In this document: positions 14,240 through 39,898 of the stretch, one piece after another
Position numbering within the stretch: the stretch's first letter is position 1
Layout: each line of letters opens with the position of its first letter
Source: a virus
Taxonomy: Duplodnaviria; Heunggongvirae; Uroviricota; Caudoviricetes
Virus record (IMG/VR): IMGVR_UViG_2698536471_000018
Span: 1 to 39,898 of that record
DNA: 39,898 nt
Reading direction: 5' to 3' (one strand)
The notes under the pieces: generated by a model
What the model was told of the DNA's origin: nothing
The model's database searches: none
Seen by the model: the letters and a program-made list of their open reading frames with translations, nothing else
Made by a program: the position numbers and the translations under genes

Positions 14240-15385
14240 TTAGCGAACAACGTTAATCTGTACGTCAGCGTAATGAACCGCGCCTGCAAGTTTTATTGCA
14301 GCCTGAATCACCGGAGCCTTACGGGCTTCACGTTCTGATTGTGCCTGTTCATCCAGCGACTGGGCGTATACGTAATAACCTTTGGGCAGCGTGTCACCTG
14401 ATGACAACTGGCCAAGGTCGCCACCGTTCCATACGCCCGGAGCAATCAGTCCATTCTGAACGGCCTGATCCAGTGATTTTTCAACATTTGATAACAGTCG
14501 GGTAATACCGGCTTCAGTCTGGGGAACCTTCGTGGTGCTGGTATAAAGCAGGTTATAGAGGTTGGTCTGCACATAATTCTGTAACCAGTCCAGGCCGTGG
14601 CGTTCATCAAAGAAATCGCCGTTAGCCATCACTCCCTGCTGGAGGATAGCTGTATCATTCTGGTAGTACACGAACACATTGCAGTTTTTTGCATCAAGTG
14701 CCGATGCCTGGCTGACTGTCAGTGTTTCATACCCGACACCCGGCTCCTGCTTAAACTTGAGCGTAATCGCGGTATTACTGCCATTGAAATTAACCGTGAA
14801 TGCCCGGCCAAATGCAGATAACGCAGCGTATTTATTACCCGATGAATACTGAATAAAACTGCGTGAATATCCGGCGGTTTTCAGTTTTGATGCCAAATCA
14901 TCTCTGGATGCAGTCTGCAGGCATTTCTCATCGCTTGTCGTAATCGCCAGAATACGGCTTACAGAAGAGGATTCGATCGCCGCAGCCACTTTCAGCCAGT
15001 CTGCATCCGGAATATCTGCATCGTCTGCAATCCCCAGCCCATACCATGAAGTATAATCAAGCATGGCATTCACAGCCTGCTCCAGCGTCTCAGGCGTGGC
15101 CTGTTCGCTGTCTCCCTTCGTTTTCACCCAACGACCAACAAAAACCTCCTGAGGTTTCGGTGATTGTGAGAAAAACACCTGCGCAGCTTTATATTCTGGT
15201 GATTCCACGCCAAAATCTTTTCCAATATCTTCCGCGGCAGAATAACGACGAATGCGCTCACTTACCGGAATGATTGTGGACGGGCCGAGAATGAGTAATG
15301 CACCAAAATTTCGCCCTGATGCTGCACGCGGCGACATGATCACATCAACATTAACAACGTTTGATACAGGCAAGCCCTGTGCCAT
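14240..15385 (-). CDS. Tail sheath protein
   Basis: 381-aa protein preceding tube and chaperone genes; contractile-tail gene order. Confidence 0.7.
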
Positions 15386-15388
15386 AGC

Positions 15389-15952
15389 TTAATCTCCGAA
15401 AAAGATGACTGGTGCTTCCACCAGCGATTTAATACCGTACTCGCGCACAACCTTCCGGCGCAGGCGTACCGTCATATCGTAGCGGCGGACCCATTGCTGA
15501 TTAATAAGTTCAGGGAAGGGAGTCAGACCTGTGTAATCGCCAAGAGACAGCCCCAGCGCATTCAGTGCTGCATTGTTCTGCGGCACAGATATACCGTCAC
15601 GAAACCGGGACGCATACACCATCCCCGCCGGTCCATAAAACGAAGCCATACACTCAATCGTTTCATGCCGCCAGAGCTGAGAGCCATCATCGGTCTGTCT
15701 GGTGAATGCCGGACTGTCATCACCTGACCATCCGATAACCCCAAACGCACACCAGTTCGTTTCAACCGGTAGCAGTGGCGGCTGCTCTTTCTGCCAGCGC
15801 GGGCGAACCATCCCGGCAGACAGACCGGAAACGTTACGCATCCACTGGCTTAACAGCCTGTCGAGCGCTTCGTCATAATCCGGATCGCCACTGGTTGGTA
15901 TTAACCATCCGCGCTCTGTACTGGTGTTATTGCTCAACCGGAGTTCCCCCAT
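15389..15952 (-). CDS. Putative tail completion/neck protein
   Basis: Position between neck and sheath genes; start chosen to limit overlap with upstream gene. Confidence 0.4.
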   Translation of the reverse strand: MGELRLSNNTSTERGWLIPTSGDPDYDEALDRLLSQWMRNVSGLSAGMVRPRWQKEQPPLLPVETNWCAFGVIGWSGDDSPAFTRQTDDGSQLWRHETIECMASFYGPAGMVYASRFRDGISVPQNNAALNALGLSLGDYTGLTPFPELINQQWVRRYDMTVRLRRKVVREYGIKSLVEAPVIFFGD

Positions 15953-16316
15953 CAAACGGCAGCAACTCACAATGCGCCTGAACAAATCCGGCACCATACG
16001 CTGTATACGGGTCGACGAAAGTCACACGATAATCACGGCCCTGATACGTCACGATATCGGCATCACGGCCAGTCTGTCCCTGCGTCAGTCGCTCAGTCGT
16101 CACAATCAGAATTGCACCACTGATTACCTGCCCGGCCTGCATACGACGGTTTTCCAGAGAGCGATCAACAGTTACGACTCCGGCAAACTGCTTTTTAACT
16201 TCGCTGTCGCTGCCGATCCCGTCCTCATCCACCGTTTGCACACGGCGTGTTACCCACAAATTGAAGTCGCAAAAATCGGGGTCAAAAAGCACATCTGTTA
16301 CATCAAGAGTCGGCAT
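15927..16316 (-). CDS. Head-tail joining (neck) protein
   Basis: 129-aa ORF in head-tail connector block. Confidence 0.45.
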   Translation of the reverse strand: MPTLDVTDVLFDPDFCDFNLWVTRRVQTVDEDGIGSDSEVKKQFAGVVTVDRSLENRRMQAGQVISGAILIVTTERLTQGQTGRDADIVTYQGRDYRVTFVDPYTAYGAGFVQAHCELLPFDGGTPVEQ

Positions 16317-16857
16317 CTTTATCCCTCACAACATGGGTAATAGCTCTGCGATATTGCCCGGTATCAATTAATGGTTTCGCCAGTTCGGTTCCCGGAGATT
16401 CGCCAGCAGCACGCCGGGCAAGTTCCAGTGTTGCCCCCTTGCGCCCCCGACGAGCCCGGGCTTCAACAGTACTGTCAGCAAGCGGCGTAAAGCCGGTAAT
16501 GGTCATGTAACGCCTGACGCCATTAGCGGCCAGTGTTCCGGCACGGTTGAGTGCGCTTTCTGCTCCCGCAGCATTACCATCAAGTGCAGCCTGCGCCGCG
16601 GCTTTGAGCTGCGGCACCGTCTGCTCTTCTGCCGATTTAACGCCGGGGACCAGGTGAGGTCGTGGCGGGATGTTCTGCTCTGGTGAGCCGTATTCGTTGA
16701 GGTAACCGATGCCCGCATTACCAAACGGAACATCATCCCGCTCGCTGTCTTCCGAAGGGATGCCGACCAGCACATCTTTTTTGGTTAACGACCTGAGCGC
16801 ATCCAGAATGGCCTTAGCGTTATCCACCCTCGTTGTTACACCGCTTTTGAAACTCAT
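16303..16857 (-). CDS. Head-tail connector / virion morphogenesis protein
   Basis: 184-aa ORF downstream of capsid block. Confidence 0.45.
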
Positions 16858-17261
16858 AGCTGGCGACCACCTGCACCGAACATCGTGATCAACTGATAAA
16901 ATTCAGCACCATATCGGGTGTTATTCCAGAAACCTGCATCAGGATTCAGCGTCGCGCTGGTGTCATAACTGACGCTTACCTTATCCACGGACTTTGAGGA
17001 CTGAACACCATTGGTTGAACCGCCCGGTCCGCCAGCCAGCATCGCCCGGATGTCTGCCGCCCAGAGCGTCATGTAGTGTGCAACGAACAATCCGGCAAAG
17101 TACGGAAACAACTTTTTGCTGGTGACGTTTTCGCTCAGCAGTTCATCGGCCAGATTCAGACGAAACTGGATTTGCGCTTCGGGATATTTGGCAGGGTCAG
17201 CAAACTGCGGGAAGTCGCGGCGAAAATCACTTACCGCTGGCAGACTTTGATTCTTTGGCAT
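16854..17261 (-). CDS. Head-tail adaptor protein
   Basis: 135-aa ORF following capsid gene. Confidence 0.45.
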
Positions 17262-17448
17262 TTTTTACCTCGTTACGCGCGTCTGTGGCTTTGCCAACGG
17301 ATACTTCCGCGTGCGCACGAGTGAACCAGTGCGTGGCAACGTCTTCCTCCACAGCATGACGGCCTTTAACAAACTCGCGCCGCGAACCGTCGGGAAGCGT
17401 GAGCACAAACGGGGTATGTACGTGTATTACTGCATTATTTTTTGCCAT
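17227..17448 (-). CDS. Small phage structural-module protein
   Basis: 73-aa ORF between capsid and adaptor genes. Confidence 0.35.
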
Positions 17449-17489
17449 CGGGTCATCCTTAATGGCCCCGCCAGGGGGCCATATGGCTG

Positions 17490-18431
17490 TTAAATGCCAT
17501 CAACGTACGAAATGGTTTCTTTGTACACTGGCTCGACTGCACCCAGCTTGCCGTAGTAAGTGACGATCTGATACAGACCGCGATACTGCACCGGCACGCT
17601 CTGAAGCGGAACCAGCGGGTAGCGGACGTATTTTTTATCGTTGGTGTACGCAACCATGCGATCCTTATTCCCCACACCACGGCCTTTCAGCCATTTAACC
17701 GCGCGGATATTCAGCGGAACACCGTTCTGGTGATAGCTGATGGTGTTGGTCTGAAGGTACGTCAACAGGGACTGGTTTCCCGCAGATGAAACGATGATGC
17801 TGGACAACAGAGCAAACTGTTCAGGCGGGATCAGCAAATCACGCGGGACCACAGAGTAACCAGAAGCGGCCCACGCATCAGACAGCACCTGGTTAATGCT
17901 TGCGCGGATTTCGTCCGGTGTTGAGGTTGCCCACGTTTTGGCAGCGTTGTTGACAGGCACGCCGTCCAGGGTAACAAGGCCTTTCAGGTTTAATGCGGAA
18001 TCGCCAACATATACCTGTTCATCGTTATCCATCTGCCATTTCAGTTGCATCCCGTCATACTTCTGCGTATCAATCGGGCGGCCGACCTGCTGAGCAGCCT
18101 GCAATTCTATGACCGTCCAGCCAAGTTCCATCCCCCACAGGTTCAGCGGGTTACCGGATTTGCCGGTATCCACGTTCACGCCAGCAATAGCGGTTGAGTC
18201 TTTGCCTACCCAGTTTTTGCCATTCGGATTTGCACCAGTACCCGCAGCGGCGAAGCTGGTATTCGTCCAGCTGGAAATGTCATCTGCGATGGAGACATCT
18301 TCACGCAGTTGGATATCGCGGGTCCAGGTGTACCCCACCAGTGGCAGGTTCAGCGTCTGGTCGAGTCGCTCCAGCTCCCCGATGAGAAAGGCACCAGAGC
18401 TGTCAACGGTTGCCTGATCAAAAGTAATCAT
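17490..18431 (-). CDS. Major capsid protein
   Basis: 313-aa protein following scaffold/protease and a small head protein. Confidence 0.7.
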   Translation of the reverse strand: MITFDQATVDSSGAFLIGELERLDQTLNLPLVGYTWTRDIQLREDVSIADDISSWTNTSFAAAGTGANPNGKNWVGKDSTAIAGVNVDTGKSGNPLNLWGMELGWTVIELQAAQQVGRPIDTQKYDGMQLKWQMDNDEQVYVGDSALNLKGLVTLDGVPVNNAAKTWATSTPDEIRASINQVLSDAWAASGYSVVPRDLLIPPEQFALLSSIIVSSAGNQSLLTYLQTNTISYHQNGVPLNIRAVKWLKGRGVGNKDRMVAYTNDKKYVRYPLVPLQSVPVQYRGLYQIVTYYGKLGAVEPVYKETISYVDGI

Positions 18432-18442
18432 TCGTCTGTTCC

Positions 18443-18949
18443 TTAAATCTTCCAGGAAATTTCTGCATTGCCGTCAGCATCACCGGCACCTGTGAATTCA
18501 GCGTTGGTCAGCACCACGTTTTTGCCACTGACTGACGTGGCCATGAATCCACCCAGCGGCACTTTGATGGATTCATCAGTGGAGACGACAACGTATACCG
18601 GGTCGCCTTTTTTGATGGTGCTGGCATCAAAATCAGAACCGAGATTAACGGTCACGTAGCCACGCTTCATGGCGTCGCCCGGGAAGTTCTTGCCACTCCC
18701 CACCTGGCGAACCATGTCCGGCTGCGAAGTGGTCGGATAAGGGCGCACGTAGATCCCCTTCACCTTGTCTGCGGTATCACCATCTGCCAGCGGCACGAAA
18801 AAACCGTCATCATCGTATTTACCAGCCAGCCCATAGGCAGCGAAGGCGTTATCGGATTTAAGGACCACCGGTTCGACGGTTAAGTCCTGCGGGCGAGAGA
18901 CAGCCCCGGCAATGCCAACAGGCATCCGGTACAGAAATACATTATTCAT
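18443..18949 (-). CDS. Head protein (scaffold/decoration-like)
   Basis: 168-aa ORF between protease/scaffold and capsid genes. Confidence 0.45.
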   Translation of the reverse strand: MNNVFLYRMPVGIAGAVSRPQDLTVEPVVLKSDNAFAAYGLAGKYDDDGFFVPLADGDTADKVKGIYVRPYPTTSQPDMVRQVGSGKNFPGDAMKRGYVTVNLGSDFDASTIKKGDPVYVVVSTDESIKVPLGGFMATSVSGKNVVLTNAEFTGAGDADGNAEISWKI

Positions 18950-18952
18950 TTT

Positions 18953-20173
18953 TTACCCTTTACGGTTTGCCCAGAATTCAGCGTTTTGTTTGTTCAGGGA
19001 AGCGATACTGGTCATGCCCATGTTTGGGCGCTGTGCATCGCCGGTGGTGGCGCGGGTGTTTCGCCCTTTGGCAATCTCAGACACGGCATTAAACGCCATG
19101 TCGACCGATTGTTTCGGCAATTTGCGGATATCCGCATCACCGACTATCTGGCGAACCAACGTTTTGTCAGCAGAAGACAGAACCTCGCGTTTGAACGCGG
19201 TCGGTTTCATCTTACGGCTCAGATCGATACCCGGAACGATAACTTCAGCACGCCAGGCTGAGTCACCAGTAATCGTGGTTTCCTCTTCATCGTCCTCGCC
19301 GTCACCGGTCGGATTATCGTCAGGCTTATTGTCGTTATCGCCCGTGGCATTTCCGTCCAGCTTAGCCAGCAGGGCTTTCAGTAATGTTTTGAGGTCATCA
19401 TCACTGTCGCCGGTTGGACCTCCACCCATCTCTGGTGCTTTGTCCGGTAGTGGTTGCTGCGGGGACAGGTTGATGTTGAGATTAACGCCCTGCGGCAAAT
19501 CCCCCTCATCTCCTGTAACCGATGCGGGAGCCGACTCCACCAGTTCGTTCATGGTGTCGGCATCTCCTGTCTTGATGGCTGCACGCATGCGGTTCCACCA
19601 GCTTTTCTTTTGATTTGCCATTGTGTCTCTGTCTCCAATTGCACAACGATTTCCGGCTCTGCCTTTAGGGACAAGAGCCACATGGTTTCCAGTAATATCG
19701 ACCTGCTCGGCTTTACCTGGCTCGGTCTGCTCATACTCCGCGTCATAGCCGCACGACACTTCGCGCAGGCCATCTTCGATAAGCTGAATGGCGCTTTCGT
19801 CTTTGACGATAAGGTCAGCCAGCATCAAATCAGACTGCTCACCCGTCCCGCGCCGGACATTCTGGAGGTGCCCGACAGCAAGCTCTTTCCAGTTCTCGGG
19901 ATTTACCAGCCGCACATTCCCGTTTTCATCTTCAGGATGCAGGATCGTGATGCTCATCCCTTCGAATGAGGCAAGCGTGGCCGGATGGAATACCTGCTCA
20001 GGAGAACGTGTGACGACTATTTCACCGAACTTATCGGGTTTCAGTTTTGGCAGGTCATCAGCACCATAGAGCTGCTTACCTGTTCGTCCTATCGGCACGT
20101 CTTTGCACAGCAACGAGCCGTCAGCCAGCTGATAGCGGGTTTCCCCCAGCCGGGTATTGAAAAAATATTTCAT
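18953..20173 (-). CDS. Head maturation protease / scaffold protein
   Basis: 406-aa protein with acidic low-complexity C-terminal half (DDNPTGDGEDDEEE), typical of scaffold domains. Confidence 0.6.
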   Translation of the reverse strand: MKYFFNTRLGETRYQLADGSLLCKDVPIGRTGKQLYGADDLPKLKPDKFGEIVVTRSPEQVFHPATLASFEGMSITILHPEDENGNVRLVNPENWKELAVGHLQNVRRGTGEQSDLMLADLIVKDESAIQLIEDGLREVSCGYDAEYEQTEPGKAEQVDITGNHVALVPKGRAGNRCAIGDRDTMANQKKSWWNRMRAAIKTGDADTMNELVESAPASVTGDEGDLPQGVNLNINLSPQQPLPDKAPEMGGGPTGDSDDDLKTLLKALLAKLDGNATGDNDNKPDDNPTGDGEDDEEETTITGDSAWRAEVIVPGIDLSRKMKPTAFKREVLSSADKTLVRQIVGDADIRKLPKQSVDMAFNAVSEIAKGRNTRATTGDAQRPNMGMTSIASLNKQNAEFWANRKG

Positions 20174-20187
20174 GTGTTACCTGCGAT

Positions 20188-20922
20188 TCAGGCGGGATAA
20201 GAATGGGAGGAGGGAAAAACGATTTCTTTATAACAGCGACAATTCGGGAGCTCGCCAGCGTGACCGGTCATGCCATCAAGCGTTGGAGGTTTGCCCCATT
20301 CGACAAATTTACCTTCCATTTCCCGATGAGAATGCCTGACATCACCATCTTCGGCTGTACGCCAGATATAACCATTCGAACCAATTGACAGCGCACGTGC
20401 CTGATCCAGCGCGCCGGTTGCACGTCCAAGTTCAGTACGGGCAATCAGGTCAGCTCTGGACTTTGCTATATCACCCGATGCGGCTATTTCTTTAGCAAAA
20501 TGTTCTGCTCTCCCACCGGTCACAACAGCTTCTATCGCCCGATTCTGGATGTCGTACACCCTGTCAGCCACCTCGAGGGGGAGCGATTTGATGTACTTGA
20601 CCTGTTCGGCGATGATGGATTGCATCACCTGGCCCACAGGAGCGCTTTCCACAAGATTGCGGAGCTCGCGACTGATGTTCTTGCTGTGTTGCCGCCAAAC
20701 TTTCTCGTTCTGCCGGGTTAGGTCCGCAGTAAAGTTTTCCGCGACCTTTGTCGCCCAGGGGGTGATGATTTCACTGTAGCGTTCCAGCGCCTCAATAATT
20801 TCCGTGATACTGTCATTTGAACCATCGTAGCGACCATTTACGATGTCTCCGCCCCCCCGCGCTATCCTGCGTAGGCTGGTTCGATAGCGGATTTCCGCCT
20901 GACGGTTCCTGCGGTTCGTCAT
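20188..20922 (-). CDS. Head morphogenesis protein (Mu F / SPP1 gp7 family)
   Basis: Position after portal; start uncertain (ORF-track start 20961 overlaps portal 3' end). Confidence 0.55.
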   Translation of the reverse strand: MTNRRNRQAEIRYRTSLRRIARGGGDIVNGRYDGSNDSITEIIEALERYSEIITPWATKVAENFTADLTRQNEKVWRQHSKNISRELRNLVESAPVGQVMQSIIAEQVKYIKSLPLEVADRVYDIQNRAIEAVVTGGRAEHFAKEIAASGDIAKSRADLIARTELGRATGALDQARALSIGSNGYIWRTAEDGDVRHSHREMEGKFVEWGKPPTLDGMTGHAGELPNCRCYKEIVFPSSHSYPA

Positions 20923-22279
20923 CAGGTTCGCCGATGCCGGGCGGCGCTTCATCTTCGGCATTCTCGATGTCCTCGTCGGTAATGGATGCCCCGATGCCGG
21001 TTACGTCAGAATTTTCGCGCAAATCAGTCATAGCAGCTTTCAGTGTCATCAGGCCATCACCCAGCGCTGTACTGATTGCGTTGGTGGTGTTTAACGCCAC
21101 CGTTGAACGATCGACATCAGACATTTGCCAGAGCGGGTTAAACTCAAACGTGAAATCATCCGGGAGCGGCTTGCCAAGTTCCGAACGATGCATGATGTCC
21201 AGTATCCGCCGCACCGGAAGACGTAAACGTCTCTCCTGCAACGAACTGATGCGGTCGTAATAGTTGGCAAGGTCTGCATCACCGGTAGAAAATCCTTTCG
21301 GGGACTGTCCGAACAACCGCACCAGTGGGATACCAACAGCGCCACTAATCTGTTCTGCAAACTGTGAAAGGATGTCATCCAGACCACTGAAGCTGTACTG
21401 ATGAGTTTCAAACTTATCCCGCGAGTCCATGAGCGTCATGCCTTCATTGCTCTGGAACTGTCGAATCAGGTCAATATTCTTCAGCAACGCTTCATACGCA
21501 GGACCACCAAGTGCGATAAGCTCGCGTAGCTTCTCCACGCTGTAGGTGCGCAAATGCGCTTTGTAGACCAGTTGCGCCGCGCCGACAGTAGCGCTGTCGA
21601 ACGCGGTAAGACGATCCCAGATACGCTCTACAACCGACATTCCCCATTCGTTCTCGGTCATCTTCTGCTGAAATGGCAGCGTGACGCCATCAAAGCGAAT
21701 CAGTCGACTGTGATGAATGCGCCAGGCAGGAATTCCCGTTGCTGTGGTCACCACATCGTAAAACTCAGGTTTACCCAGGTCCGGCCCCATATCTTTAATG
21801 CGGCGGGTCAGTACCGGGTCAATCATCCAGCGGTCGAGCGGGAGAATCCCCTTAAACTTGCCTTTACCGATGGTTTCGGGTCGCAGAGGGGTCATTGGTG
21901 CCTGCCCCTCAATCATGATGAAACCCACCGCGCCGCCATAGAGGCGCGACCATTTCAGCACGTCGTTCAGTGCATCCCAGATTTGCAACTCATCCAGTTG
22001 TGATTCGAGAATGCCGCGATCTTTTGCATCAATTTCCGAAGTGATGCGAATGCCTTTGCGGGTCATATCATCCGGGATAGCATCGACCGCTTCGCCGATA
22101 ATCCAGGACGAACGATAGGACCATTCCACCAGCATGCGGTTACGACTGGTAAAATTAGCCCGGTAGGTGGATGCTGAGTGCTGGTTAGGTGTCTGCATCC
22201 CTACGCGGGCAATAAAATTCTCATAACCATCGGCTGTGGCCTGCGCAGTTCGCCGCAGGGCTTGTTTGTTTCGTGCCAT
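20813..22279 (-). CDS. Portal protein
   Basis: 488-aa protein directly downstream of large terminase with acidic C-terminus. Confidence 0.75.
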   Translation of the reverse strand: MARNKQALRRTAQATADGYENFIARVGMQTPNQHSASTYRANFTSRNRMLVEWSYRSSWIIGEAVDAIPDDMTRKGIRITSEIDAKDRGILESQLDELQIWDALNDVLKWSRLYGGAVGFIMIEGQAPMTPLRPETIGKGKFKGILPLDRWMIDPVLTRRIKDMGPDLGKPEFYDVVTTATGIPAWRIHHSRLIRFDGVTLPFQQKMTENEWGMSVVERIWDRLTAFDSATVGAAQLVYKAHLRTYSVEKLRELIALGGPAYEALLKNIDLIRQFQSNEGMTLMDSRDKFETHQYSFSGLDDILSQFAEQISGAVGIPLVRLFGQSPKGFSTGDADLANYYDRISSLQERRLRLPVRRILDIMHRSELGKPLPDDFTFEFNPLWQMSDVDRSTVALNTTNAISTALGDGLMTLKAAMTDLRENSDVTGIGASITDEDIENAEDEAPPGIGEPDDEPQEPSGGNPLSNQPTQDSAGGRRHRKWSLRWFK

Positions 22280-23901
22280 CAGGCCTGTCTCCCTAGCAAC
22301 TCCCAGATGTTCAGGGCTGAATTCATTGGGGCATAGTTGATCATCACCGAGTCGGCAAGGTTTGGCGACCGGGTTCCATCAGGCTGTTTATCAATAACGA
22401 TTTTTCCCACACCATTAATGGAATAGGTCGGCTGCGAAAGCTCGATGATGAGTTTATCTTTGAGTGCCATGCTACTGCTGATTGAGATGATTTCGTCCGG
22501 GTTGTAAGCCATACCTTCAACCACGGCGCGCCAGGTATTCTGAAAAAGTTTACGTAACCGCCACCAGCTCTGGGCTTTGGCGTTAGCGAAGAAGTCCTTG
22601 TTCAGACGTGCGGCTTGCCCGTTGTCCCCGCGAACAGCTTCATCATCCGGATCAAATACCGCGCCACTACCTCGAAACGGTGTGGCGAGTATTGACGGTC
22701 GACGCGCAGCGTTACGCAGTTCGTTGATAGCGCGTGCATCGCCGCGAACTCCAGCGCCCAGTCCGTCCTCGTCAAAGCGAAACTCTTCGAGGTTATCCTG
22801 TTCGCAAAAGCCGAAAATCTTCTCGACGGACTGATAAATGTCGCTGCCCACACCGGACCATTCCCGCACATTTTCCAGGAGGAAGCCATGACGGGTGGAA
22901 AAGGCATTTTTGTCCCTGCCTTCGTCGGCGACATCCATCGCGCCAAGTCGTTTGCCTGTTGGCTGGATACCCAGTTTGATATGCGCATCAACGGCAGCCT
23001 GTACCCATTCGGATGGAATCAGGACGCCTTCCGCTGATGCGCTGTAGTTCAGATCAAGTTCCTGTGCCACCACCACCGGATTATCGATTTTCTCGCATTC
23101 CCTGCGATACCACTCTTCATCCTTGCGAGGATCATCCCGCCAGTGGAATGTGAATACCGGTATCTTCCCGCCATGACGCTTCTGAGCGAACGGGTTAGCC
23201 ATGCCGTTAACTGAACTCAGGTCGATACGGCAACGCGTCGTTTGTGACAACGCCGCATCAATCAGCAGAGGACGCTGAAGGAATGCAGCCTCATCAACCA
23301 GATAAAGCGTGGTACGGTCACCACGACCAATATTATCGCCAGCCTCGCCTTTGATAACGGCACCAGTTTCAGGAAACTCAACACGCATATATGGCGCGTG
23401 CTTCTTCTCACTCCACGAACCGCGAAACTCTACAGGTAGCGTTTCCACGAACTTGCGCGCCTTCCAGAACAATGCTTTCGGGTCACCAGTGCTGTCGACG
23501 TATTCCTCTTTACGGGAGCCAAAACCGATAACCATTTCTTTGTTGAAGAGACAAAGCGAGCATGCCAGTCCGATCGCGGTCCAACTGAGCCCCATTTCAC
23601 GGGATTTTTCGGTAATACCATTCTCCCGATTGCTCCAGCGTTCCATAATCCAGTGGATCCACTCCTCCTGCTTAGGGAAGAGTAAAAACGGAATGGTCAC
23701 CGGCAGGCCATAATCAATATTACGCGGGTCCGTTGTCATGCCCCAGTCGATGATGAACTGAGCCGGATTGGTTCGGTAAAACTGTTTTAGTGCAGGCAAT
23801 ATTTCAGGATTCTGGCGAATGCGCTGTAGGCGTTCCATCCGCCATTCAAAAACCATCTGGTAATCAGGATGTTTAAAATCGAAGGGGAATGGTAACGGCA
23901 T
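22279..23901 (-). CDS. Terminase large subunit
   Basis: 540-aa protein; contains the motif LYLVDEAAF (Walker-B-like DEAA) in an ATPase region; precedes portal. Confidence 0.85.
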
Positions 23902-23905
23902 ACTC

Positions 23906-24457
23906 TTAGCCCATCATTTTTCTATACGCTTCTGCAACCTGCTCCGGCGTTAAGTTGGTAATTTCTGTTCTGACTGGTCCTCCGTCAGCACCAGTCACTT
24001 CATTTTTGACATTGTCTTTAAACGCCTGAACAGAAACATGACGCCCGAGCAACTCAAGGTTTTTAACCTTATCAGGCCATTTGATTTTCTTCAGAAGTGC
24101 GGCGCTATCTGCGGATGCCATCTCCACGACATCCATTCCTGATAGCGTTGTGCGCCATACCTTAGGCCAGTCTTTAATGGGCTTTAGCTCACCGTTTTGC
24201 AGGAGAATGTCGAGCACATCCATCTGGTCGATTTCAATAAGGCGATTAAGTACATATCCTGCATTAATACCAACAAGATCATTGCGTTGCGCTTTCAGTT
24301 CGGCGATTCTTAACTTGATGTCAGGTTTTGACAGGTTTTCGGATGCGGTACGGTTAGCTGTCTTTGCGCTGTACCCCGCCCGAATAGCCGCTTGCGTGGC
24401 GTTTAAATCGATGAGGTACTCGCGACAGAACATCTCTTGTTTGTCGGTGAGTGCCAT
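23906..24457 (-). CDS. Terminase small subunit
   Basis: N-terminus [34 protein letters not shown] is the typical small-terminase HTH signature. Confidence 0.85.
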
Positions 24458-37695: not shown

Positions 37696-37860
37696 ATGCA
37701 ATATGCCATTGCAGGGTGGCCTGTTGCTGGCTGCCCTTCCGAATCTTTACTTGAACGAATCACCCGTAAATTACGTGACGGATGGAAACGCCTTATCGAC
37801 ATACTTAATCAGCCAGGAGTCCCAAAGAATGGATCAAACACTTATGGCTATCCAGACTAA
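37696..37860 (+). CDS. cIII: CIII (FtsH inhibitor)
   Basis: MQYAIAGWPVAGCPSESLLERITRKLRDGWKRLIDILNQPGVPKNGSNTYGYPD, essentially lambda CIII; AAGGAG RBS. Confidence 0.9.
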   Translation: MQYAIAGWPVAGCPSESLLERITRKLRDGWKRLIDILNQPGVPKNGSNTYGYPD

Positions 37861-37942
37861 ATTCACTATCGCCACTTTTATTGGCGATGAAAAGATGTTT
37901 CGTGAGGCCGTCGAAGCCTACAGAAAATGGAGGTCAAAATGA
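37829..37942 (+). CDS. kil: Kil-like small protein
   Basis: MDQTLMAIQTKFTIATFIGDEKMFREAVEAYRKWRSK resembles lambda Kil N-terminal region; overlaps cIII 3' end. Confidence 0.6.
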   Translation: MDQTLMAIQTKFTIATFIGDEKMFREAVEAYRKWRSK

Positions 37943-38127
37943 TCCCGGTAGAGCTGGCGAAAACTCCAGAGTTAAGTCGATTAAAAAGAGAGTATCACAT
38001 TGCTGAGGCTCGTTACTGGCGTAAAGCGGGAGATAAATCAAAGAAACAACTTTGTTTATGGCAAGCACAAAGAGAGCGCATGAATGAGCGCGAACTTCTT
38101 TCCTCCCCATCCGAATTACCATTCTGA
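37939..38127 (+). CDS. Hypothetical small basic protein
   Basis: 62 aa from MIPVELAKTPELSRLKREYHIAEARYWRKAG...; GGAGG upstream. Confidence 0.4.
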   Translation: MIPVELAKTPELSRLKREYHIAEARYWRKAGDKSKKQLCLWQAQRERMNERELLSSPSELPF

Positions 38128-38135
38128 GGCAAATT

Positions 38136-38816
38136 ATGGGAACTGCGACATTAATACTCGGTGAGTCTGGCACCGGAAAATCAACCAGCATGAGAAATAT
38201 CAATCCAGAGGAAGCAATACTTATAAAACCAATAGGCAAGCCGCTACCATTTAAATCAAAAGACTGGCTTGCATGGGATGCCAGAGCAAAAAAAGGAACC
38301 GTAGTTACCACTGACAAATGGGGCGTAATAGTTGCCGTAATTAAGCGTGCTCACGAATACGGGAAAAGAATCGTTATTGTTGATGACTTCCAGTATGTGA
38401 TGAGCAATGAGTTTATGCGCCGCTCAGAAGAAAAATCGTTTGATAAATTTACTGAGATAGGCCGCCACGCATGGGAGGTCATTAAGGCTGCACAGGATGC
38501 GCCTGATGACCTGAGAGTCTATTTTCTTGCGCACACCGAAGAAACCCCTATGGGGCGCGTGAAAATGAAGACTATCGGCAAAATGCTGGACGAGAAAATC
38601 ACTGTCGAAGGCATGTTTACTATAGTTCTTCGCACTCTTACCCGCGATGACCAGTTCTTTTTCACCACGAAAAACAACGGTGCAGACACTGTTAAATCCC
38701 CAATGGGAATGTTTGATTCCAATGAGATTGATAACGATCTCTCTTTCGTCGATGCCACTGTTTGTGATTACTACGGCATCAATAATGTTCATCAAATTAA
38801 GGAAAACGCCGCATGA
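38136..38816 (+). CDS. P-loop AAA ATPase (Sak4-like RecA-fold recombination ATPase candidate)
   Basis: Walker A GESGTGKST near N-terminus, Walker B-like IVIVDDF; occupies the gam/bet/exo position. Confidence 0.55.
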   Translation: MGTATLILGESGTGKSTSMRNINPEEAILIKPIGKPLPFKSKDWLAWDARAKKGTVVTTDKWGVIVAVIKRAHEYGKRIVIVDDFQYVMSNEFMRRSEEKSFDKFTEIGRHAWEVIKAAQDAPDDLRVYFLAHTEETPMGRVKMKTIGKMLDEKITVEGMFTIVLRTLTRDDQFFFTTKNNGADTVKSPMGMFDSNEIDNDLSFVDATVCDYYGINNVHQIKENAA

Positions 38817-39400
38817 GCAACGTGATTTTTACTTATAACGAAGAAGCAGCACTAACAGCAGGGCAAGGTGGTTTTATTAACGAAACTGGCGCTCATATCA
38901 TTACCATTACTGAAGCAGAACTAAAGCAATCAGAAAAAGGAGCCAAATTTATTGAGTTTTCTGGCGAATCTGACGACGGACGTAAAATCCAATATCTTAG
39001 CGTCTGTGTTCAGAAAAATGACGGAACGGAAAACAAATTTGGCGCAAATGTCGTTCACGCCATGATGGGGTGTGCCGGGATTGGACAATTAACGCAGCAT
39101 ATGGTTTCCGCCAGTAAATTTGTTGCACCTGAATTTCATGGAAAGAAAATCGGGTTAGTGCTCCAGAAAGTATTAACCACAAACAAAAAGACTGGCGCAG
39201 ACAGCTACCAGATGGAAATACGCATCCCGTTTATTGCACAAACAGGTCAAACCCTTAAAGAAAAGGCAGAAGGCAAGCAACCAGAAACTATCGCCAACAT
39301 GGTTGCCAGCCTCAAAGATAAAGACAATCGCTCTAAAAACGTAAGCCATAATCATGCAGATGATTATGGTTACAGCCAGAACGATTACCCTCCTTTCTGA
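38813..39400 (+). CDS. Hypothetical protein coupled to the ATPase (possible ssDNA-binding partner)
   Basis: 195 aa, start overlaps ATPase stop. Confidence 0.4.
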   Translation: MSNVIFTYNEEAALTAGQGGFINETGAHIITITEAELKQSEKGAKFIEFSGESDDGRKIQYLSVCVQKNDGTENKFGANVVHAMMGCAGIGQLTQHMVSASKFVAPEFHGKKIGLVLQKVLTTNKKTGADSYQMEIRIPFIAQTGQTLKEKAEGKQPETIANMVASLKDKDNRSKNVSHNHADDYGYSQNDYPPF

Positions 39401-39423
39401 TTACTGAAAATAAGGCTCCCATT

Positions 39424-39720
39424 ATGCCAGCGCCTCTGTATGGTGCGGATGACCCGCGCAACTGCTCCGGTAGCTCCAAGGCGGAGGTGCTGGGAAATAT
39501 CAAAAACAATTTCGACGCGTTTCTTGCTCTGACACCAGAAACAAAAGCAGAACGGATGTACCGACGCGATATACAACTCGCGCTAAAACAGGAGAAGGAC
39601 CGAACAAACGAAACAGCAATGAGACCGTTGCGAAAAGCGACAATAGACAAATTCCCTGAATATATCGACCCGCGCCTGCGTAATTACCGCTCACGCTATG
39701 GCGCTATCAGTAATAACTGA
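39424..39720 (+). CDS. Hypothetical protein
   Basis: 98-aa ORF in early-left operon; weak RBS. Confidence 0.35.
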
Positions 39721-39730
39721 GGAATTTACC

Positions 39731-39898
39731 ATGAGAGGACTTGCATACAATCCCGGCATTCTTCCGGCAGAAATGATTATTCGCCAACGCGTAAAGCCAA
39801 TGCCATCGAGAGAGGAGTTGCTTAAGAGAAATTCTTTTCCATCAGTAAATCAAAACAAATATCTGAATGCGATGTGGCGTAAAGGAGGCAACCAGTGA
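39731..39898 (+). CDS. Hypothetical small protein
   Basis: 55 aa from [15 protein letters not shown]...; AGGA RBS; stop at window end. Confidence 0.35.

Follow-up and report, generated by a model that had tools for sequence, protein, structure and literature searches.

The closest described relative of the gene pair analyzed here belongs to phage HK620 (NC_002730), whose Rec module has the order hkaM-hkaL(sak4)-hkaK(ssb)-hkaJ(abc2) and is located behind cIII and kil in the pL operon. Purified HK620 Sak4 binds ssDNA only in the presence of ATP, does not bind dsDNA and acts on its own as a weak, ATP-dependent annealase (PMC5928155). In oligonucleotide recombineering assays that used a recA mutS host, background was exceeded 15-fold with sak4 alone and 210-fold with the whole four-gene module, and the latter level was restored by sak4 plus ssb; sak4 plus abc2 gave no stimulation, nor did ssb alone cause any increase (PMC5928155). 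Deletion of the six-residue tail of the SSB cut recombineering 10-fold, and in vitro the truncated SSB no longer stimulated annealing by Sak4 but inhibited it; furthermore, Sak4 bound to SSB-coated ssDNA only if the tail was present (PMC5928155). The SSB itself, HkaK, behaves as an apparent tetramer in size-exclusion chromatography, forms two discrete complexes on an 81-mer in gel shift experiments, as does E. coli SSB, binds ssDNA with an affinity about 4-fold below that of E. coli SSB, and blocks RecA-mediated annealing (PMC5928155). As many as 80% of sak4 genes reportedly have an ssb as their neighbor, and Abc2, encoded by the last gene of the module, converts RecBCD into a resecting enzyme (PMC5928155).

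Two further phage systems invite comparison. Lambda Red (Gam, Beta, Exo) resides in the same genomic slot and likewise mediates RecA-independent single-strand annealing for oligonucleotide recombineering, but its proteins are unrelated to the pair described below: Beta is Rad52-like, ATP-independent and paired with its own exonuclease, whereas the annealase of the present locus would be a RecA-core protein that depends on ATP and on an SSB of its own. Lambda Gam inhibits RecBCD, whereas the Abc2 protein of our module is expected to hijack RecBCD, in a module without an exonuclease. The arf-erf-abc1-abc2 genes of P22 share the slot, the four-gene layout and a homologous abc2 (PF11043), the Abc2 proteins of HK620 and P22 being 94% identical (PMC5928155). 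However, P22 Erf is a Rad52-like annealase and not a Sak4, and neither Abc1 nor Arf of P22 is a homolog of HkaK or HkaM.

Gene pair and Rec module

The window, that is, the whole 39,898-base stretch of phage DNA that was analyzed, carries two ORFs on the + strand between positions 38136 and 39400, exactly where a preceding sequence-only reading had placed them. The upstream gene, sak4 (hkaL homolog; 38136..38816), encodes 226 aa and the downstream gene, ssb (hkaK homolog; 38813..39400), 195 aa; the sak4 stop and the ssb start overlap in ATGA at 38813-38816, in agreement with the tight coupling that had been ascribed to the 195-aa partner. Judged from their sequences, both are real genes rather than chance ORFs, because they match known families, have annotated HK620 counterparts of equal length with 99% identity and, in the case of the second ORF (SSB), have 147 homologs in the protein database. 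Sak4 is identical to HK620 HkaL (NP_112045) at 224/226 positions and the SSB to HkaK (NP_112044) at 193/195, in neither case with a gap. Two substitutions (window to HK620) affect Sak4 (D43E, G63D) and two the SSB (E153V, H179Q); all four fall into columns that vary among homologs, leaving the Walker residues and the C-terminal NDYPPF tail of the SSB untouched. With four exchanges, none of them at a conserved position, the window proteins would be expected to behave like those of HK620. At the nucleotide level, window positions 37514-39879 are collinear with the HK620 module at 94.7% identity, and the order of the four genes, their lengths and their placement after cIII and kil in the pL operon are the same. 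As far as can be told from sequence, the pair is a new copy of a known and experimentally characterized system, the HK620 Sak4-SSB pair of 2018. The first choice of the sequence-only reading had been an annealing ATPase of the Sak4 type plus an accessory protein, and the near identity to the characterized HK620 Sak4 bears this choice out; the accessory protein had not been recognized as an SSB, nor had hkaM and abc2 been identified as members of the module. The recombineering assay proposed there as a check is already published for the HK620 pair (PMC5928155).

Profile searches, the other check suggested, assigned the first ORF to PHROG 2872 ('Sak4-like ssDNA annealing protein'; E 1e-107, residues 1-220 on profile positions 1-218 of 219) as well as to Pfam AAA_24 (29.4 bits at a gathering score of 27), and the second ORF to PHROG 743 ('single strand DNA binding protein'; E 3.3e-66). 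A regular expression run on the translation located the Walker A motif GESGTGKS at residues 9-16 (38160..38183, + strand), which reads GESGTGKST when extended to residue 17, and a search of the translation located the Walker B-like motif IVIVDD at residues 79-84 (38370..38387, + strand). G9, S11, G14, K15, D83 and D84 are invariant in an alignment with homologs of 31-55% identity. The nucleotide-binding motifs pointed out before are consequently in place; the term 'AAA ATPase' used for their carrier is loose, as the AAA_24-type phage P-loop family represents RecA-core-only proteins and not classical AAA+ ATPases (PMC5928155). Sak4 consists of one domain, and its size of 226 aa fits a RecA-core-only architecture. 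Against PDB sequences, phmmer gave no matches with Sak4, and a profile search yielded nothing beyond unspecific P-loop matches and a single designed scaffold; hhalign of the Sak4 family alignment against an approximate E. coli RecA sequence returned a probability of 15%, confined to the Walker A region, which is a lead at best. The RecA-core nature of the present Sak4 rests on the literature, in which Sak4 is described as a remote RecA/RadB homolog that comprises the RecA ATPase core only and is devoid of the RecA C-terminal DNA-binding domain (PMC5928155), together with the AAA_24 and PHROG matches.

The surroundings of the pair follow the layout of a lambdoid early left operon, with all features on the + strand. 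A cI-type repressor gene (35183..35920; Peptidase_S24 and HTH in Pfam) precedes a promoter-like site, TTGACC-17-TATCTT (36468..36496), which aligns onto the annotated pL of HK620 (record positions 7833-7868). Then come the gene for an N-like antiterminator (36726..37025; PHROG 271, E 2e-36) and two terminator-like sites at 37609-37626 and 37647-37666, which map onto tL2A and tL2B of HK620 and can be regarded as equivalents of these intrinsic terminators. They are followed by cIII (37697..37860; 54 aa), an overlapping kil (37829..37942; 37 aa) and a homolog of hkaM (37939..38127; 62 aa; PHROG 1723, E 4e-32), whose start overlaps the kil stop in ATGA; each of the three genes is collinear with its HK620 counterpart. 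Given the order N, cIII and kil upstream of the pair, its location after cIII/kil, in the slot of gam-bet-exo in lambda, had been correctly recognized. The module ends with abc2 (anti-RecBCD protein 2; 39424..39720), supported by Pfam PF11043 Anti-RecBCD_p2 (E 1.2e-35, 122 bits), by PHROG 656 (E 1.9e-44) and by collinearity with HK620 hkaJ. All ORFs from kil to the window end are accounted for by hkaM, sak4, ssb, abc2 and a DUF2737-like gene, and among the ORFs of this interval neither Pfam nor PHROG gave a match to the Beta, Exo, Gam or Erf families. One difference from HK620 concerns cIII, which an internal stop cuts short in the HK620 annotation but which is of full length (54 aa) in the window.

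Some database labels in this region deserve comment. The 54-aa cIII ORF matches PHROG 2461, 'Kil protein for bacterial septation inhibition' (E 5.8e-28); it appears that this Kil label has been misapplied to cIII-like proteins and that kil is the overlapping 37-aa ORF at 37829-37942. For the hkaM homolog, both PHROG 1723 and the RefSeq record of HK620 use the name 'recombinase'. This label looks unsupported, because HkaM has been classified as an orphan without assigned function that is dispensable for the stimulation of Sak4 in recombineering (PMC5928155) and because the window homolog gave no match in Pfam, NCBIfam or PADLOC, the Pfam search having been extended up to E 10. Between N and the tL2 terminators, a 156-aa ORF (37034-37504, + strand; PHROG 1636, E 2.7e-112) that has no match in Pfam takes the slot of HK620 hkaQ plus hkaP, the latter being a putative superinfection-exclusion gene. 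Directly downstream of cI we noted a 98-aa ORF with a hydrophobic N-terminus (35961-36281, + strand; PHROG 18389, E 5e-62), after which there is a strong bidirectional terminator (36262-36281). By analogy with lambda rex and HK620 hkaS, which are placed likewise, this ORF may be a prophage-expressed exclusion gene.

Predicted fold and kinship of the SSB

Homologs of the window SSB are named 'DUF669 domain-containing protein' by NCBI; despite this name, a Pfam search with the SSB up to E 10 gave no match. Its structure was predicted with AlphaFold2 on a 41-sequence alignment obtained from one homolog search, which resulted in a model with a pLDDT of 82.3 and a pTM of 0.71, compared with a mean pLDDT of 38.7 for a single-sequence run. 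In the model, the OB order is beta1-beta2-beta3-alpha-beta4-beta5, so that an atypical OB fold can be predicted for the partner with good confidence. Residues 177-195 have pLDDT values below 50, consistent with a disordered C-terminal tail. This tail terminates in NDYPPF (residues 190-195; 39380..39397, + strand), which is the same in HK620 and constitutes the Sak4-recruiting motif according to PMC5928155; the consensus of the family tail is D-x-x-P-F, with F195 being nearly invariant in the homolog alignment.

Searches at the sequence level brought the SSB no closer to proteins of known structure: phmmer against PDB sequences produced only a chance match (E 0.26), and a profile search against the same sequences found nothing. 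Aligning the SSB family with E. coli SSB by hhalign gave a probability of 1.6%, again with an approximate E. coli sequence and hence a lead at best. The kinship of HkaK with bacterial SSBs is disputed in the literature; Hutinet et al. (2018) connect the two only transitively, via N4 gp45 and two phage SSBs (PMC5928155). Our results suggest that the protein is not a sequence-level member of the canonical bacterial SSB family (PF00436) and would share the fold alone. E. coli SSB thus lacks detectable sequence homology to the window SSB, and it differs functionally as well in that HkaK stimulates rather than blocks cognate annealing.

Among the structural matches to the model, PrgE of the conjugative plasmid pCF10 (PDB 8s4s/8s4t) ranked best, followed by bacterial SSBs, PriB and RPA. 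The predicted OB fold of the partner, with a plasmid protein as its nearest structural neighbor, is a small new point of the present analysis. Sequence identity between PrgE and the SSB amounts to just 12-14%, and the biochemistry diverges: PrgE is described as binding ssDNA in a filamentous manner and dsDNA equally well (PMC11137577), unlike HkaK with its tetrameric state and two discrete complexes on the 81-mer, and PrgE has no known Sak4 partner. It is conceivable, although we would rather bet against it, that the DUF669/HkaK-type SSBs of phages and the PrgE-type SSBs encoded on conjugative plasmids of Gram-positive bacteria belong to one divergent OB-fold lineage, comprising ssDNA binders of mobile elements and set apart from the bacterial SSB family. 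If true, a single lineage of this kind would suggest partner-recruiting roles for PrgE-like proteins, as exerted by HkaK for Sak4.

Probable annealing function and alternative readings

On the above grounds we consider it very probable that the pair at 38136-39400 is part of an HK620-type Rec module, hkaM-sak4-ssb-abc2, in a lambdoid phage, which is transcribed from pL under N antitermination and in which Sak4 performs annealing together with its cognate SSB. None of the findings speaks against this reading. The sites that map onto the HK620 annotation suggest that N-cIII-kil-hkaM-sak4-ssb-abc2 would be transcribed from pL, with the tL2A and tL2B equivalents presumably being read through via N antitermination, and the translation of sak4 and ssb may be coupled by the ATGA overlap. 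Abc2 would then modify host RecBCD such that ssDNA substrate is made, and a phage exonuclease would not be needed because Abc2-modified RecBCD supplies the ssDNA. The SSB, probably in tetrameric form, would coat these strands and, in its DNA-bound state, expose the NDYPPF tail; in this manner Sak4 would be recruited to the SSB-covered strand and annealing be stimulated, with Sak4 binding ssDNA and annealing complementary strands in the presence of ATP.

Single-stranded DNA-binding proteins are core replication proteins. This counts for a reading in which the biochemistry is the same but the main job of the module is replication: Sak4 and SSB, aided by RecBCD as modified by Abc2, would serve to switch theta replication to the rolling-circle mode or to restart phage forks, and recombineering would be a by-product. 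A 2025 survey in Genome Research mentions that a part in the theta-to-sigma switch has been ascribed to Rec-module genes of lambdoid phages, and crossover recombination by Sak4 plus SSB was low, staying 500-fold below RecA (PMC5928155). Still, the activities that have been demonstrated are annealing and oligonucleotide recombination (PMC5928155), and the two roles are not mutually exclusive. Weighing these points, we judge replication as the main job to be unlikely, albeit worth keeping in mind; a decision between recombination and a replication-mode switch leaves the gene identities unchanged in either case.

When co-expressed with the SSB, Sak4 raised post-conjugation recombination 20-fold over background (PMC5928155). 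This could be taken to mean that Sak4 catalyzes strand exchange as a genuine recombinase of the RecA type, or that it acts as a mediator in the loading of RecA of the host, which would fit the remote RecA/RadB homology and the ATP-dependent DNA binding described for it in the literature. The HK620 data speak against both variants, since purified Sak4 with or without SSB catalyzed no strand exchange and did not stimulate RecA-mediated exchange, HK620 recombineering was equal in RecA+ and recA- cells, and the RecA C-terminal DNA-binding domain is missing from Sak4 (PMC5928155); a role of this type is accordingly very unlikely. It is hardly credible that the genes constitute a different two-gene ATPase system (anti-phage defense, anti-defense or toxin-like) that merely sits in the recombination slot, an option left open by the sequence-only reading and nourished by RefSeq names that say just 'AAA family ATPase' and 'hypothetical protein' and by a weak PADLOC match to mad8 (E 1.7e-05), because this match covers only the P-loop (ATPase residues 1-23), PADLOC otherwise returned a partial match of E 0.006 for the ATPase, no full-length match, and none for the partner or the hkaM homolog, an NCBIfam scan for another two-gene system gave nothing above 17 bits, and the pair is 99% identical to proteins with demonstrated annealase and SSB activities, adjoins abc2 in a recognized Rec module and includes a partner with a predicted OB fold and an SSB-type tail.

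Distribution, annotation and the remaining phage genome

Among 5,426 complete E. coli genomes, 179 contain the pair at a coverage of at least 80%, and 195 show a match of any extent; as all of these copies are chromosomal, they can be taken as prophages. Many Stx1a- and Stx2a-converting phages and other coliphages share the pair region with a DNA identity of about 98%. The pair is common in E. coli prophages, Stx-converting phages included. Sak4 homologs occur in 168 phage records, ranging from phages of Enterobacteria to crAss-like phages, and the order sak4-then-ssb is kept in Aeromonas phage 2_D05 and Acinetobacter phage PhabP_R1 at 45-56% identity; Fusobacterium phage Fnu1 has a sak4 without an adjacent ssb. 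This pattern is in line with the maximum of 80% given in the literature for such neighborhoods (PMC5928155). Names in RefSeq and GenBank still read 'AAA family ATPase', 'DNA binding ATPase' or 'hypothetical protein'. As these labels have remained generic, the correct names (Sak4 annealase, cognate SSB, HkaM and Abc2) can be transferred. Better annotation is the main practical outcome of this work, which adds little in terms of discovery. For the window phage itself, the module marks a Rec+ lambdoid phage of the HK620 type.

At its left end, the window opens with the ATG of an integrase gene (1-1158, + strand; 385 aa, PHROG 1) with 95.7% nucleotide identity to HK620 int, and at its right end it closes with the stop codon of the DUF2737-like gene that follows abc2 (39731-39898, + strand; 55 aa, PHROG 1117). 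Since the window starts at the int ATG and ends at a stop codon, with both genes on the + strand, its 39,898 bases seem to represent either a whole phage genome of circular form or an excised prophage, linearized at int. If so, int would directly follow the pL operon, and no recognizable xis would lie between them.

Outside the module, the phage departs from HK620: its mosaic is a different one, the structural genes are myovirus-like and the immunity region differs as well. For the structural and terminase part (15000-24100), which includes DUF3383 and Mu-like head morphogenesis genes, identity to E. coli 'vB_EcoM' prophage-derived phages amounts to about 98%; the early region resembles HK620, JEP4 and Stx phages. 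No phage record was found to cover at least 80% of a 25-kb query. The window phage is a clear lambdoid mosaic. Next to int, a UmuD-like protein of 147 aa is encoded on the - strand (1165-1608; PHROG 811, E 3e-50), followed on the + strand by a 338-aa O-acetyltransferase/O-antigen acetylase-like gene (1863-2879; PHROG 3333, E 1.5e-38), and these two are probable lysogenic-conversion (moron) genes.
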